Of a stretch of DNA of 32,000 nucleotides, positions 9,726 through 16,900 are shown piece by piece. A program made the position numbers and the translations under genes. Each line of letters begins with the position of its first letter. Position 1 is the stretch's first letter. Location of the stretch: assembly GCF_045646205.1 (NCBI RefSeq), contig NZ_JAZRKF010000019.1:96379-128378 (forward strand), written 5' to 3'. Source of the DNA: Methanobrevibacter sp. GTDB taxonomy: Archaea; Methanobacteriota; Methanobacteria; Methanobacteriales; Methanobacteriaceae. The notes under the pieces were generated by a model. That model was not told the DNA's origin. It was given only the letters and a program-made list of their open reading frames with translations, and did not search any database.

Positions 9726-12110
9726 ATGAACAAAACTAGTGACAATTTCAATAAATACATTGATGAATTTTTCAACAACATTGAATTATATGATGATATT
9801 CATAATGAACATAAATATAAGAAACGTTTAAAGACATATGTCGATAATTTCTTAAGTAATCAAACAACAGAGAATGCAAAGGAGATATATAAGTATTTTT
9901 TCATGATATACCAAATCAAATATGAAGATAAATCCGAAGGTTCAAGTTCATCAGAAGACGGGTCAAACACTCTCCTGAATCTTGTTGAGATAATGGGAAA
10001 ATATGAAGAAAATACTGGAGATTTGATTGATAAGCAGAGAGATCATTTTCTTCACTCAGTAAATGTATTCTTATTGGGTTTGGCAATATATTCAAAAAAT
10101 AAAAAATACAGGGATTATTTCAAAAAATATGTTCGTGAAAGTCCTTATGAGAAATATTATCGGATTGAAAATGAGAACAGTAAAAAAGAAAACTTAAAAA
10201 AAGATATTAAAAATAAACCTGAAGTTTCTAATGAAGAATTTTTATATCGCTGGGGAATCGCATCACTTTTCCATGACATTGGTTATCCTGTTGAAATTAT
10301 TGGAAAACAGATGAAAAAATTCATTAATGACGGGGTTAGATCAATTGATAACTCATACAATGTTGACACCGCTATTGACTTTAAGGATTTCAGCCGTTTC
10401 AACACAATTGTGAAAAGAAAGTCTGATTTTACTGATAAGTTTAGAAATGATTATCCTGAATCTAAATTTTTAAATTTATTCAAACCTACTCATTTAATGG
10501 CCTATAAAATTTATGAAGATTTAAAACCTGAAGAAGGATATTTGATTGAAGAAAATAAAAAATTACAAAAAATCGAAGAATCAAATAAAAATAAAAAGGA
10601 TTGTGAAAAAGAAAAATATGTCATAAAAGATAATATTGAATTAACTCCTTTAGTAAATAATCTGGACAATTTTGTTACAATTATGAAAAACAGTGGATTC
10701 ATTGACCATGGATTTTTCAGTTCAATATTGGTTTTAAACTCATATGGTTATTTAATTCAAAAATATAAAAGGACTTATGATTTCTTTTTTTATCCGATTG
10801 TGGACAGTGCATCTGCAATATTATTGCATAATTTCTTCCGCAATGTATTATTTAAAGATCCGTATAACGCTTCCAGTTTATCACCCGAAAAAAGTCCTAT
10901 TGCATTTTTATTAATATTGTGCGATGAACTTCAGGAATGGAACCGTAAGCCTCTGGGTGTTGTAGACAAGGAAAGAAACCATGTCGCTGATATAATCACA
11001 GACATTACCGAAGATTCATTATATGTCAAATATATAGTTAAAAGCGGACCTATGGGGTCTTCATTTTTAATTGAAAAAAAGGATTTGTTAGATAAAGTTT
11101 TAGATTTGCAAAAGGTATTTAAAGATGGTTTAACCATTAAAACGAATGTTGAAGATGACAATATAACAATGAAAGATATAACATATAGGGAAGCTAGAAC
11201 TCCAAATATTTTAATGACAACGATAGATAAGTTACCTGCTCAAATTTATGCATATTATTCAGAAATAACTGGCGATGACAAAGAACTTGAAAAGATATTT
11301 GAATCATTGACTCCTTCGGAACAATATTCCAATATGAGGCAGGCAAAATCCATTTCTAAAAATTTATCAATGATCGGTTGTGAAATTGCATTTAAATCAG
11401 ATAAAAGAGATGAATATATATTGTCGGATAATGAGATAAATGATTTGGCAATGTTTGAACACAAGGATTGGTGTAGTGAAAAAATAGAAGCCGGTTGGAG
11501 TCCGGGTAAGGATAAAGATGATAAAAAATTAATTCATCCATTGTTAGATGATTGGGAAAATTTAGATTCATCTGTTCAGGAGGATAATAAGAAAACCATT
11601 GAAAACCTTGTTAAAATTTTATCAAATGTGGATTTAAAAGTTGTATTTAATAAAACACGTTTATTAAGCATTGAATTGCATAATTATTATAATGAGGTTT
11701 TTAATTCGGATATTCCATTTGATTCATTAAGTGATGAGCAGAAATATTTTAATTATAAACAGGCAGATTTCATTATAAATTTCCTTAAAGAACATGGATA
11801 CAACATAGTTTTTGAAAAAGATGAGGGAATTCACATCACTGAATTCAACCCAAAAGAAATTGAATGTCTTGCTAAAAAAGAACATGAAAAATGGTGTGAT
11901 TATAAACGTAACCTTGGTTGGGAAGAAGGGGAGAAATCCGAAGAAGATAAAACCAATCCAAACATTTGCGAATGGAAAGACCTTGATGAGTCAACACGTG
12001 AATTTAATAAGAACACCATTAAAAAACTTCCAGATTTATGCTCAAATCAGGATGCTGGATTAAAAATCATAAAAGAAAATCCAGACTATCCTTTCCCATG
12101 TGCAGATTAA
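9726..12110 (+). CDS. HD-domain phosphohydrolase/nuclease-fold protein with two C-terminal (helical + RyR-domain) repeats (cassette gene A)
   Basis: HD-superfamily residues occur in order: RDHFLHSVNV (H110), ASLFHDIGYP (H183-D184), IDHGFF (H328), ILLHNF (H368), LILCDELQEW (D400). The module is interrupted by a Lys/Glu-rich insert. RyR-like repeat 1 is LAMFEHKDWCSEKIEAGWSPGKDKDDKKLIHPLLDDWENLDSSVQEDNKKTIENLVKIL (nt about 11433-11645). Repeat 2 is LAKKEHEKWCDYKRNLGWEEGEKSEEDKTNPNICEWKDLDESTREFNKNTIKKLPDL (nt about 11847-12050). Each is preceded by a ...Y(Y/A)...L(S/T)..(E)Q(Y)(S/F)N(M/Y)(R/K)QA..I...L...G helical unit. A GAGGGT RBS is present. Confidence 0.8.
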   Translation: MNKTSDNFNKYIDEFFNNIELYDDIHNEHKYKKRLKTYVDNFLSNQTTENAKEIYKYFFMIYQIKYEDKSEGSSSSEDGSNTLLNLVEIMGKYEENTGDLIDKQRDHFLHSVNVFLLGLAIYSKNKKYRDYFKKYVRESPYEKYYRIENENSKKENLKKDIKNKPEVSNEEFLYRWGIASLFHDIGYPVEIIGKQMKKFINDGVRSIDNSYNVDTAIDFKDFSRFNTIVKRKSDFTDKFRNDYPESKFLNLFKPTHLMAYKIYEDLKPEEGYLIEENKKLQKIEESNKNKKDCEKEKYVIKDNIELTPLVNNLDNFVTIMKNSGFIDHGFFSSILVLNSYGYLIQKYKRTYDFFFYPIVDSASAILLHNFFRNVLFKDPYNASSLSPEKSPIAFLLILCDELQEWNRKPLGVVDKERNHVADIITDITEDSLYVKYIVKSGPMGSSFLIEKKDLLDKVLDLQKVFKDGLTIKTNVEDDNITMKDITYREARTPNILMTTIDKLPAQIYAYYSEITGDDKELEKIFESLTPSEQYSNMRQAKSISKNLSMIGCEIAFKSDKRDEYILSDNEINDLAMFEHKDWCSEKIEAGWSPGKDKDDKKLIHPLLDDWENLDSSVQEDNKKTIENLVKILSNVDLKVVFNKTRLLSIELHNYYNEVFNSDIPFDSLSDEQKYFNYKQADFIINFLKEHGYNIVFEKDEGIHITEFNPKEIECLAKKEHEKWCDYKRNLGWEEGEKSEEDKTNPNICEWKDLDESTREFNKNTIKKLPDLCSNQDAGLKIIKENPDYPFPCAD

Positions 12111-12120
12111 TTATTTGGGG

Positions 12121-14820: not shown

Positions 14821-14845
14821 TTTTAACATTTGAAGTAGTGATTGA

Positions 14846-16900
14846 ATGTTTGATGTAGATATTGCAATAAAAAATGAAAATGAGGATGTTTTAAATCGTG
14901 GAGATTTTGCCAAAAAATTGGCAAAAAGCATAATGGATTATTCCGAACCATATCCATTAACCATTGGCCTAAATGGAAATTGGGGATCTGGAAAAACATC
15001 CCTGATTAATCTAACATTAAATTACATTGAAAGTGAAAATGATGAAGATAATTTCATCATTGTGCATTTTAATCCATGGTTTTTTTCAAACCAAAAAAAT
15101 CTATTCTTAGAATTTTTCAAATTAATAATTGATTCATTGAAAACTAAAGAAACAGAAAAAGAGTCTTTTATAGAAAGAACAATGTCTCCACAAAGGACTA
15201 TCTTTAGAAAAACAGAAATTGAAGTGTTGGAAGATTATTCTAATTATATTAAACTTAATTTAGATGATACTCATGAAGTTAATGATATTTATTCACATTC
15301 AGTAGACGCTACCGATTCATTGAGTTTTTATAAAAATCAATGCAATGAATATTTCGAAAGATTAAATTTTAAGGTTATTGTGGTTATAGACGATATTGAA
15401 CGCTTGATTGATGCTGAAATTAATCAGATATTTACATTAGTCAAATCCCTAGCTAATTTTAACAATTTTATTTATCTTCTTAGTTTTGATAAAAATATCA
15501 TAGAAAAATCATTGGATAAGATTAACTCCGAAGAGGGAGATAAGTTTATTGATAAAATCATACAGATTCCAATTATCATTCCACCAGTAAGCGAATCAAA
15601 GTTAAACGAATTGATTCAGAAAAATTTAGAACCTATTTATTCAGATTACATGGGAAAAGACTTTATAAATCATTATCATGAATTTATCAAAGTTTCAAAT
15701 TTTTTAAACCTTTTTATTAAGGATATACGTGACTTAAAGAAATTCACTAACCTGTTAAATTTCTATTGGCAGATATTTGTCAAAGAACTGAATATCAATG
15801 ATTTCATATTGATGCTGGCCATACAGCTATTTGATTATGACTTATTTTTAAAAATAAAAAATCATAAGGATTTGTTAACGGCCAATAATCGATTATTCAA
15901 GACAAATGATGTTGATATTGATCAGGAAATATCTGATGTACTCAATGATTTTGAAGAAAATGAAAATCTAATAGAATTATTGAGCTTCATTTTTCCTATA
16001 CTTGGAGGTAAAACGAATATTGATTATGAAAAATGGGATAAAAATCATAATGCATGCAGCGATAAGCATATTGACAAATATTTCCTATTATCTCTTGAAA
16101 ATAACGAAGTCAGTACCTTACTATTGGATAAATTAGTTAAAATGGACAATGAAATTGAAATATATGAAGTTTTCACACAAAAAACTAACTTGGATTACAA
16201 TCATTCTTTATTATATCACTTTTTAAAATTACTTCCTCAAATACCAAAGGAAAACAGTGAATTCTTTATTAAAGCATTATTGAGATGTGGGGATGAGATG
16301 AATTTATATCCTGATTCAAGAAGACTGTTAAAAATTATTTTGGATAACTTATTTGAAAAAATAGACGATAAAAACAAATGTCATGCTATTTTAAAAGAAA
16401 GCTGTGGCTATGAAAATAACTTGCTTACCCATACACAACATATCTATTCAATTTCATCTGATTCAAATATAAGTGAAAATATCAACTTTGGTGAATCTTA
16501 CAGCTTCAAGCAACTTGATGAACTTAAAAAACTGACAATAAGCAAATTATGTGATTGCTGTCAATGCAATAATTTAATAAACAAAGCATTTTTAGCGGAT
16601 ATCTTATGTTATTGGAAATTGATTGATGATGAAGAAAATGTTAATGAACACATAAGAAATAGCGTTAAAACAGATGAGGAAATATTAACTTTATTAAACA
16701 ATTTCCAAACAACAAACAATAATGAATGGAATTTTGATTTTGAGGAATTGGATAAATATCATGGATTGGATGCTTATGAAAATACCTTGTCCAGAATAAA
16801 ATCTAATGAAATCCTCCCAATTGAAACAAAGAAATTCTGTGAAACATTTATTGACCAATCACAAGAATTTAAGAATAAAAATAACATTAACCCTCAGTAA
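14846..16900 (+). CDS. KAP-family P-loop NTPase, soluble form (cassette gene D)
   Basis: The N-terminus, DVLNRGDFAKKLAKSIMDYSEPYPLTIGLNGNWGSGKTSLINL, is the textbook KAP opening (D.l.R..fa..la..i + G.WGSGKTS Walker A, nt about 14966-15010). Walker B is KVIVVIDDIERL (DD at 15389-15394). Then comes LLSFDK. No hydrophobic insertion lies between Walker A and B. An AGTGAT RBS is present. Confidence 0.85.
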   Translation: MFDVDIAIKNENEDVLNRGDFAKKLAKSIMDYSEPYPLTIGLNGNWGSGKTSLINLTLNYIESENDEDNFIIVHFNPWFFSNQKNLFLEFFKLIIDSLKTKETEKESFIERTMSPQRTIFRKTEIEVLEDYSNYIKLNLDDTHEVNDIYSHSVDATDSLSFYKNQCNEYFERLNFKVIVVIDDIERLIDAEINQIFTLVKSLANFNNFIYLLSFDKNIIEKSLDKINSEEGDKFIDKIIQIPIIIPPVSESKLNELIQKNLEPIYSDYMGKDFINHYHEFIKVSNFLNLFIKDIRDLKKFTNLLNFYWQIFVKELNINDFILMLAIQLFDYDLFLKIKNHKDLLTANNRLFKTNDVDIDQEISDVLNDFEENENLIELLSFIFPILGGKTNIDYEKWDKNHNACSDKHIDKYFLLSLENNEVSTLLLDKLVKMDNEIEIYEVFTQKTNLDYNHSLLYHFLKLLPQIPKENSEFFIKALLRCGDEMNLYPDSRRLLKIILDNLFEKIDDKNKCHAILKESCGYENNLLTHTQHIYSISSDSNISENINFGESYSFKQLDELKKLTISKLCDCCQCNNLINKAFLADILCYWKLIDDEENVNEHIRNSVKTDEEILTLLNNFQTTNNNEWNFDFEELDKYHGLDAYENTLSRIKSNEILPIETKKFCETFIDQSQEFKNKNNINPQ

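Follow-up and report, generated by a model that had tools for sequence, protein, structure and literature searches.

Four co-directional genes, designated here A to D, lie closely packed in a stretch of 32,000 nucleotides (nt) from Methanobrevibacter sp. (NCBI RefSeq assembly GCF_045646205.1, contig NZ_JAZRKF010000019.1, positions 96,379 to 128,378 of the forward strand; hereafter the window). An earlier sequence-only reading of the window proposed that these genes form an undescribed immune system of a methanogenic archaeon; the host assignment is borne out by an identical A protein that NCBI names from Methanobrevibacter sp. Gene A encodes a protein with two RyR repeats, B a DUF4062 protein with a STAND nucleoside triphosphatase (NTPase) module, C a protein with two transmembrane helices (2-TM) and D a KAP P-loop NTPase resembling PifA (Table 1). 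With a probability of roughly 55%, the locus represents an accessory mobile cassette of two separately conserved antiviral pairs, a Thoeris-like pair (A and B) and a PifA-like pair (C and D), that travel together in one lineage. The strongest new result, not emphasized in the sequence-only reading, is that the A-family RyR protein is a recurrent partner of TIR-type enzymes.

The physical layout is as originally described, with the open reading frames (ORFs), the gaps between them, the upstream intergenic region and the convergent overlap at the 3' end all reproduced. The stop codon of A is separated by 10 nt from the ATG of B at 12121, and gaps of 39 nt and 25 nt separate B from C and C from D respectively. 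GTG codons at 12100 and 12133 provide alternative starts for B, for which metagenome gene callers choose 12121 (629 amino acids; aa). The intergenic region upstream of the cassette is delimited by the starts of a DUF4013 gene (9457, minus strand) and of gene A (9726), and a convergent gene encoding 239 aa (16894-17613, minus strand) shares 7 nt with the end of D. All four genes belong to families of the conflict type, as had been claimed. The original domain assignments hold for the two RyR repeats, DUF4062, the STAND P-loop, the two transmembrane helices and the KAP domain, and do not hold for the HD domain proposed in A, whose motifs fit without support from profiles or folds.

Table 1. Features of the four-gene cassette and its upstream region, in window coordinates.
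Feature	Position	Strand	Description	Basis
Divergent intergenic region	9458..9725	.	268 nt, AT-rich; presumed promoter region of the cassette	Sequence reading
Gene A	9726..12110	+	794 aa; N-terminal alpha-helical conserved domain and two RyR (Repeat12-type) repeats	
A N-terminal domain	9726..11225	+	Residues 1-500; HD-like by motifs only; putative effector domain	
A RyR repeat 1	11358..11645	+	Residues ~545-640	Pfam and PDB alignment
A RyR repeat 2	11772..12074	+	Residues ~683-783	Pfam and PDB alignment
Gene B	12121..14010	+	629 aa; TEP1-like DUF4062 (TIR-like) domain and NACHT-type STAND NTPase	
B DUF4062/TIR-like domain	12142..12495	+	Residues ~8-125	
B P-loop NTPase module	12988..13680	+	Residues ~290-520	
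Gene C	14050..14820	+	256 aa; two N-terminal transmembrane helices and a soluble domain of ~185 aa	
Gene D	14846..16900	+	684 aa; PifA-like KAP P-loop NTPase, KAP domain at residues 19-307	

The C-terminal part of A is clearly assigned. Pfam RyR (PF02026) matches the protein in two stretches at 83.9 bits (cut-off 27.4; E = 9.5e-24), RyR Repeat12 domains in PDB are matched down to 6.5e-25, and more than 1000 homologues are found at E<=1e-5. In repeat 1, H579-x-x-W582 and H604 are present and the Asp position of the RyR 'EYD' motif is occupied by N621 in the cassette clade; the A proteins of a solo clade keep Asp at this position. In repeat 2, H720-x-x-W723 is invariant, and the His and Asp positions are N744 and N761 in all aligned family members. 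Neither A nor its bacterial homologues match any entry of PADLOC-DB v2, and no relatives of A were found in IMG/VR viral contigs.

The N-terminal domain of A contains the motifs QRDH107xxH110S, FH183D184xGYP, D327H328G, H368N and C399D400E, which are invariant in archaeal and bacterial homologues, among them those of Methanobrevibacter, Chloroflexota, Clostridia and Bacteroidales. H110 (HSxxV), H183-D184 (FHDIG) and D400 (CDEL) compose an H...HD...D metal-ligand motif that is invariant in 22 homologues. The sequence-only reading had predicted an HD-fold hydrolase; this prediction gains no support from Pfam cut-offs, PDB profile searches or Foldseek. The Pfam HD model does not match A and matches 3/22 homologues weakly (best E 0.022, under the cut-off), and a family profile of the domain retrieves no PDB sequence at E<=10. 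An AlphaFold 2 (AF2) model of the domain with a predicted local distance difference test (pLDDT) score of 77 and a predicted template modelling (pTM) score of 0.83 returned nothing from PDB and BFVD at E<=0.001 in Foldseek, its weak matches being exopolyphosphatase 3rf0 (PPX C-terminal domain, probability 0.38) and 2flo (0.25); in an earlier full-length model from 12 sequences, the N-terminal domain was too poor (pLDDT 63). The domain is therefore described as HD-like by motifs only. Comprising ~480 conserved residues with no detectable structural relative, it may represent a new enzyme fold.

Gene B combines a TIR-like domain with a STAND module. Pfam DUF4062 (PF13271) matches at 46.5 bits (cut-off 24.7; E = 4.3e-12), and positions 6-209 of a B-family profile match the solved TIR-like domain of TEP1 (PDB 11gz) at 2.8e-53. 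The invariant motifs of the domain are FxSST, DMxxERD, DLRWG and S118-x-T120-x-x-E123. E123, in the last of these, does not vary among 22 diverse homologues and falls opposite the second Glu of 'TEMEV' in TEP1, which suggests that it is equivalent to TEP1 E1008. The NTPase module has invariant Walker A (G321-x-G323-K324-T) and Walker B (D407) motifs. Its NACHT score is 15.4 bits against a cut-off of 26.7, with ATPase_2, AAA_22 and NPHP3_N likewise under their Pfam cut-offs; at the family level, the B profile matches APAF-1 in PDB and relatives carry PF05729. The protein ends at residue 629, directly after the NTPase and winged-helix region, as do its cassette relatives, and no C-terminal repeat sensor (WD40, TPR or LRR) is present; most B relatives are 740-1430 aa long and run on into WD40 or TPR repeats. 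No PADLOC model covers B. Longer B-like STAND proteins (P0130 and P0132) in another Methanobrevibacter genome are not encoded beside A-like genes, and B-type proteins thus also exist alone.

The association of the A family with TIR-type enzymes was surveyed in 66 loci from one scan (33 bacterial and 33 GTDB Methanobrevibacter loci), using local hidden Markov models built from Pfam-confirmed TIR and DUF4062 segments, with E-values that refer to a small database. Around bacterial A genes, TIR and DUF4062 genes account for 27% of genes at distance 1 (16/59), 10% at distance 2 (5/50), 7% at distance 3-4 (6/86) and 0.7% at distance 5 or more (1/147); the comparison of distance 1 with distance 5 or more gives Fisher p = 5e-9. 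Such a gene lies no more than two positions from A in 18 of the 33 bacterial loci. The partners confirmed by Pfam include TIR-LRR (L054, L065 and L069), TIR (L058 and L045), TIR-NB-ARC-TPR (L073), TIR-TPR (L071) and DUF4062-NACHT-WD40 proteins (L051, L055-57, L062, L063, L070 and L071). In two cases, the partners are joined in a single polypeptide: a protein from a Papillibacter metagenome-assembled genome (MAG), a bacterium, has the arrangement A-RyR-TIR_2 with the TIR domain C-terminal (L059:475-2727), and one from a Methanobrevibacter MAG has the arrangement TIR_2-A-RyR x2 with the TIR domain N-terminal (L019:12282-15494). Homologues of B itself, with 40-43% identity over its full length, are encoded ~100 nt or less from A homologues in Actinomycetota, an unclassified bacterial MAG and Candidatus Humimicrobium, and 3-4 kb or less from them in Bacteroidales.

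Further proteins of possible relevance are encoded beside A homologues. TIR-SBP_bac_5 (L049:7512-9830 and L061:1370-3760) and TIR-PASTA (L064:7656-9266) proteins, likewise confirmed by Pfam as partners, contain unusual candidate sensor modules for TIR proteins, SBP_bac_5 being a periplasmic solute-binding domain. A second RyR family, found in Chloroflexota and Bacteroidales, combines TrkA_N (Rossmann, NAD-binding type) with one RyR repeat in ~550-610 aa (L044:2096-3877, L046:6937-8778, L053:2484-4250, L066:11858-13612, L078:11857-13626, L070:1400-3037 and L071:8606-10255), and has no PADLOC match.

Two sets of findings from 2026 preprints give these associations a biochemical context. Phage RyR-domain proteins (PF02026) bind or cleave 2'/3' cyclic ADP-ribose (2'/3'cADPR) and cADPR, using H-x-x-W, a downstream His and an Asp in a pocket common to animal RyR Repeat12 (PMC13232231; 10.64898/2026.06.04.730250). 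In TEP1 and in the Swarozyc defence system, DUF4062 acts as a TIR-like NADase, an enzyme that consumes nicotinamide adenine dinucleotide (NAD+) (10.64898/2026.05.01.722283), and it forms the core of the effector in the Evangelion defence family (10.64898/2026.06.25.731849); the anti-phage activity of DUF4062 proteins was thus demonstrated by experiment in 2026. Given the affinity of phage RyR proteins for signals of the cADPR type and the NADase role of DUF4062 in defence, A and B are most economically read as a Thoeris-like pair, with A probably serving as a cellular receptor for signals made by TIR. In the proposed mechanism, the NACHT-type NTPase of B would oligomerize upon a trigger and thereby activate the N-terminal DUF4062 domain, which would split NAD+ into ADP-ribose (ADPR) or a similar nucleotide of the ADPR type. 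This product would be taken up by a Repeat12-like pocket formed by both RyR repeats of A, and ligand binding would turn on the His/Asp-rich N-terminal domain, a putative metal-dependent phosphohydrolase or nuclease that would arrest the infected cell.

Genes C and D make up the second pair. Gene D matches Pfam KAP_NTPase (PF07693) at 160.9 bits (cut-off 20; E = 5.4e-47) and, at 2.8e-65, the PADLOC profile (PDLC02361) of PifA, the F-plasmid T7 exclusion protein, with residues 3-661 aligned to model positions 6-708 of 720. Its Walker A (GNWGSGKTS) and Walker B (VVIDDIER) motifs are intact as read from the translation, and hydropathy reveals no hydrophobic or transmembrane segment. An NCBIfam match to QatA lies far under its cut-off, and NCBIfam yielded no usable names. 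The sequence-only reading had recognized no named defence system in the cassette. This holds for A, B and C, none of which has a PADLOC model, and fails for D, through which a defence-finding tool already assigns part of the cassette to a described system. Beyond the KAP domain, D continues for ~370 aa with no assigned function; KAP NTPases with unknown C-terminal regions were validated experimentally as anti-phage in 2026 (PMC13552941).

Gene C has two N-terminal hydrophobic segments by hydropathy (residues 3-37 and 44-69), matches no Pfam, NCBIfam or PADLOC family and belongs to a rare family, with 34 representative clusters among 1.84 billion. The idea that C is a detached N-terminus of a KAP protein gained no support, as 0 C-KAP fusions occur among the 34 homologous clusters. 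A D-type KAP gene is always directly preceded by a C-family 2-TM gene, including at loci without A and B. Four loci (L089, L090, L092 and L095) encode D homologues of 38-50% identity with a C homologue of 35-43% identity directly upstream and no A or B. In a metagenome scan with the C family, the only new locus contains C and D alone. The D-type KAP of L090 (7001-9457; also P0254 and P0273) carries a fused ThsB-type TIR domain at its C-terminus, with the C-family 2-TM gene still upstream, and a second KAP gene and DUF6119 and DUF2971 genes lie nearby. From these sequence relationships, C and D are best read as a PifA-like system in which the membrane part would be supplied by a separate 2-TM protein. 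D would serve as a soluble KAP P-loop NTPase that is the sensor or switch of this second module, and C as its membrane-acting partner, leading to an abortive exclusion of the permeability type; the antiviral function of both pairs in the archaeon is putative.

Comparison of the locus among relatives, with gene calls in the compared loci taken from our own simple ORF calls, places the four-gene set in at least five flanking contexts and two orders. The order A-B-C-D is found in the window and same-species contigs and in L081/L082, where the genes are 82-87% identical to those of the window and are followed by Cas2, RhuM, Bro-N and integrase genes. The order C-D-A-B is found in L079 (56-64% identity), flanked by flavodoxin and TrkH genes. 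The order C-D-A-B' is found in L083-85 (57-70% identity), flanked by adhesin-like genes and an insertion sequence (IS) transposase, and in L086-88 (55-69% identity), flanked by ATPase_2, M78 and MarR genes; B' is a protein of 250-280 aa with a DUF4062 domain only. Divergence is alike across genes (A 56-58%, B 55-58%, C 64-70% and D 59-62%), and the adjacency of the four genes has been retained through one module swap. A frameshift interrupts D in L001, a sample from the same species as the window. Together, these contexts and decaying copies indicate that the cassette is accessory, horizontally mobile and subject to decay in Methanobrevibacter.

The four-gene set was found only within one Methanobrevibacter lineage. 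The proposed four-part combination is syntenic elsewhere in the genus and confined to that lineage, with C+D and A+TIR occurring separately beyond it; the comparative data thereby bear out the fallback of the sequence-only reading, in which A+B and C+D are two adjacent systems. None of the 33 bacterial or 33 GTDB Methanobrevibacter A loci contains a KAP or C homologue.

Several observations weigh against reading the locus as two co-travelling antiviral pairs. First, the adjacency of the four genes through a module swap and their similar divergence would also fit a single integrated system. In this scenario, considered unlikely, a sensor-less B or B' would rely on D as sensor or switch, A would read the product of B or the loss of NAD+, and C would be a membrane effector or anchor. 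B has no recognizable sensor domain, and it shares with its cassette relatives the absence of the WD40 or TPR sensor of most homologues. In two contexts, no NTPase is left in B while C, D and A are intact, and all four genes stay adjacent in two permuted orders and at least five contexts. The sister lineage represented by L090, in which a D-type KAP is fused to a ThsB-type TIR domain and retains a C-like partner, provides a Rosetta-stone link of D-type KAP proteins to TIR chemistry. However, C and D occur without A or B in 4/4 more distant loci, A-family genes occur without KAP or C homologues throughout the census, and the full set is limited to one genus-level lineage. Furthermore, defence genes often share islands without functional coupling, and the truncations of B may be mere decay, one of them adjoining an IS transposase.

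A second group of observations bears on the assignment of A as the effector of a signalling pathway. The HD fold of its N-terminal domain is unsupported, the resemblance being confined to motifs, and in cassette-clade A the alignment indicates that the Asp of the RyR pocket is replaced by Asn in both repeats. Moreover, the DUF4062 enzymes characterized to date are NAD+-depleting effectors that yield linear ADPR, not signal makers; B could thus be a sufficient effector alone. A might instead regulate TIR signalling, as a host sponge or degrading enzyme that would capture ADPR-type products with its RyR repeats and clear them with its hydrolase-like N-terminal domain, thereby setting a threshold for B or shutting it off in a manner comparable to the ring nucleases of type III CRISPR. 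RyDEP and RyR Tad, which are all the RyR proteins characterized in this context, sequester or cleave cADPR isomers and do not transduce them, repeat 1 of solo-clade A keeps the His...Asp dyad of the RyDEP glycosidase, and a DUF4062 enzyme that is itself a toxic NADase would make an extra effector unnecessary. A regulatory role is nonetheless improbable: A is a large protein (580-800 aa) with a conserved enzymatic-looking domain, and its constant partnership with diverse TIR sensors and its TIR fusions follow the pattern of Thoeris effectors, while the loss of the Asp from both repeats of the cassette clade speaks against glycosidase activity.

Third, the A family is not always coupled to TIR. 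At the 33 GTDB Methanobrevibacter loci, the A paralogues (47-50% identity) often occur in 2-4 tandem copies; B, C and D are absent from their vicinity, and most have no TIR-type neighbour. A kinase-Hsp70 fusion gene is a shared neighbour in 16/33 of these loci, and at least 16 species have A in this setting; in another five loci, tandem TIR genes lie two or three positions upstream. The kinase-Hsp70 neighbourhood (L015, L016, L019, L021, L023-L030, L032, L036 and L041) is conserved across species and comprises genes for an FHA protein, a fusion of protein kinase and Hsp70 (~1170 aa), a calcineurin-like phosphoesterase, A itself, often in duplicate, two uncharacterized ~260-aa proteins and MatE. 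Its presence in many Methanobrevibacter species resembles stable cellular signalling and, together with the TrkA_N-RyR proteins beside A homologues in several bacteria, raises the alternative that the cassette is not antiviral, with A and B serving NAD+/ADPR-linked signalling or stress physiology as chance neighbours of an unrelated membrane-associated NTPase pair (C and D). This alternative is very improbable given the patchy and mobile distribution of the cassette near Cas2, RhuM, Bro-N, integrase or IS genes, its decay by frameshift and truncation, and the PifA-like nature of D. DUF4062, KAP and TIR partners with LRR, TPR, WD40 and STAND modules are also hallmarks of immune sensors, and close families are experimentally antiviral.

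The two pairs can be set beside described systems. As in Thoeris (types I-XI), a TIR-type NAD+-processing protein lies beside a protein with nucleotide-binding and putative enzymatic parts, TIR partners with sensor repeats are diverse, TIR-effector fusions occur and the distribution is patchy and mobile. In contrast to Thoeris, the putative producer is a DUF4062 (TIR-like) domain on a NACHT NTPase and not a ThsB-type TIR, the putative receptor is of the RyR Repeat12 type and not SLOG, Macro or another known sensor, and A falls in no described effector family (ThsA to ThsL) and has no match in PADLOC-DB v2. In the available portions of the 2025 systematic Thoeris survey (29 putative types), four supplementary files contain no RyR, PF02026 or ryanodine term, and the main text mentions 'ryanodine' once, in reference to cADPR in animals. 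Full-text literature searches, of incomplete coverage, returned RyR-domain proteins in the TIR-defence field only as phage anti-Thoeris factors.

Gene B shares with TEP1, NWD1 and bacterial TEP1-like proteins the conserved Glu and DUF4062 motifs followed by a NACHT-type P-loop. It differs from TEP1, Swarozyc and Evangelion proteins in being archaeal and in having no WD40, TROVE or Swarozyc/Evangelion-type auxiliary domain; the described systems also consist of single genes, while B has an A-family RyR protein as its partner throughout the cassette lineage. Similarly, D resembles PifA and anti-phage KAP proteins in its full-length PifA match, its strong KAP_NTPase domain and an unassigned C-terminal region, as in the validated KAP defence proteins. 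It differs in having no transmembrane segment of its own, in invariably following a 2-TM partner that is dedicated to it and comes from a rare family, in its identity of <33% to plasmid KAP genes in all tblastn matches listed, and in having a sister clade in which the NTPase is fused to a ThsB-type TIR. Gene A, finally, has in common with the phage anti-Thoeris glycosidase RyDEP and sponge RyR Tad the PF02026 domain, the H-x-x-W and downstream His of repeat 1 and a link to TIR. Unlike these, A is a cellular protein in which a large conserved domain precedes the RyR repeats, and it is a neighbour or fusion partner of TIR-type genes of the host itself. The catalytic Asp is lacking in the cassette clade, and IMG/VR yielded no homologue of A.

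Judged by profile and alignment, much of the locus falls within known families: D belongs to the PifA family according to a defence-finder profile and B belongs to the TEP1-like DUF4062-NACHT lineage, with the obligatory 2-TM partner and the repeat-less B as variations. The absence of a PADLOC match for A, combined with a literature in which RyR domains appear only as phage factors, makes the RyR-domain partner the new element, and no earlier description of a TIR/DUF4062-RyR pairing was found in the literature covered, which is incomplete. The locus is therefore classed as probable signalling of the TIR type, or NADase-based immunity, in which the partner has RyR domains and which stands beside a PifA-like pair, and not as a categorically new system.

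The surroundings of the cassette contain a 56-nt direct repeat (8552-8607 and 17712-17767), the copies of which are 88% identical (0/100 shuffles matched). The statement that the cassette is bracketed by direct repeats is correct insofar as the repeat is real; however, the pair encloses six genes, not four. Relative to the same-species contigs L001 and L002, the window has a 517-bp insertion (8084-8600) that holds the left repeat copy and most of a 79-aa ORF (8069-8308, minus strand). Since L001 and L002 carry the whole cassette without this insertion, the repeats were rejected as attachment sites or a cassette boundary. Neither Rfam nor tRNA scans gave a match in the window, which leaves no tRNA integration site, and the repeat pattern was not found in metagenome contigs from the Joint Genome Institute (JGI). 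Both copies are situated upstream of ORFs on the minus strand, namely the 239-aa gene and the 79-aa ORF, and the repeat is tentatively read as a shared regulatory element. The right copy runs into three 19-nt tandem units (CACTCAGAACAATTTTTAC / GAGTGGGAACAATTTTTAT / GAGTGAGGACAATT...), the whole covering window positions 17712-17786; the units lie ~100-170 nt upstream of the 239-aa gene (start 17613, minus strand) and may be an operator or promoter array.

Downstream, a 499-aa DUF2828 + DUF7788 protein (18299-19798) is preceded by ~480 nt of non-coding DNA (17800-18298) with no Rfam match; in L001, its gene has an internal deletion of 396 nt (window 18860-19255). Bacterial TEP1-like DUF4062 proteins can carry TROVE domains (Evangelion preprint, 10.64898/2026.06.25.731849), which opens a possible link between this protein and B. 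The mobile-element tract noted beside the cassette is confirmed. Extending over 20800-27602, it contains many orphan small ORFs, a weak match to a NACHT-associated inactive restriction endonuclease-like domain (21039-21533), an AAA_14/DUF4143 ATPase (23141-24346), a 448-aa Zn-finger-like protein (24809-26155) and a tyrosine integrase (26502-27602). Its guanine-cytosine (GC) content falls to 0.22-0.25 with strong GC skew, and it is probably an integrated element. The region is flanked by genes for two large surface proteins (2158-5355 and 28265-31753) that are adhesin-like, contain beta-helix repeats and begin with signal-peptide-like N-termini, of a kind typical of Methanobrevibacter.

A broader proposal, which is tentative and falls somewhat short of an even chance, is that cellular A-family RyR Repeat12 proteins are the receptor/effector arm of a widespread and undescribed class of TIR and DUF4062 immune signalling in bacteria and archaea, with Repeat12 as an ancestral sensor of TIR-made nucleotides derived from ADPR. 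In this methanogen lineage, the pair would also have been coupled to the PifA-like KAP NTPase and the 2-TM protein that accompanies it, giving a four-gene system. The reading preferred here, of two antiviral pairs carried by one mobile cassette, has consequences of its own. To our knowledge, very few antiviral systems have been characterized in methanogens. If the RyR repeats of A sense the product of a TIR-like enzyme, they would define a new receptor/effector class common to bacteria and archaea. This would explain the RyR-domain sponges and glycosidases of phages as mimics or competitors of a host receptor, and would extend the DUF4062 NADase and KAP NTPase defences to the methanogens of the gut and rumen.

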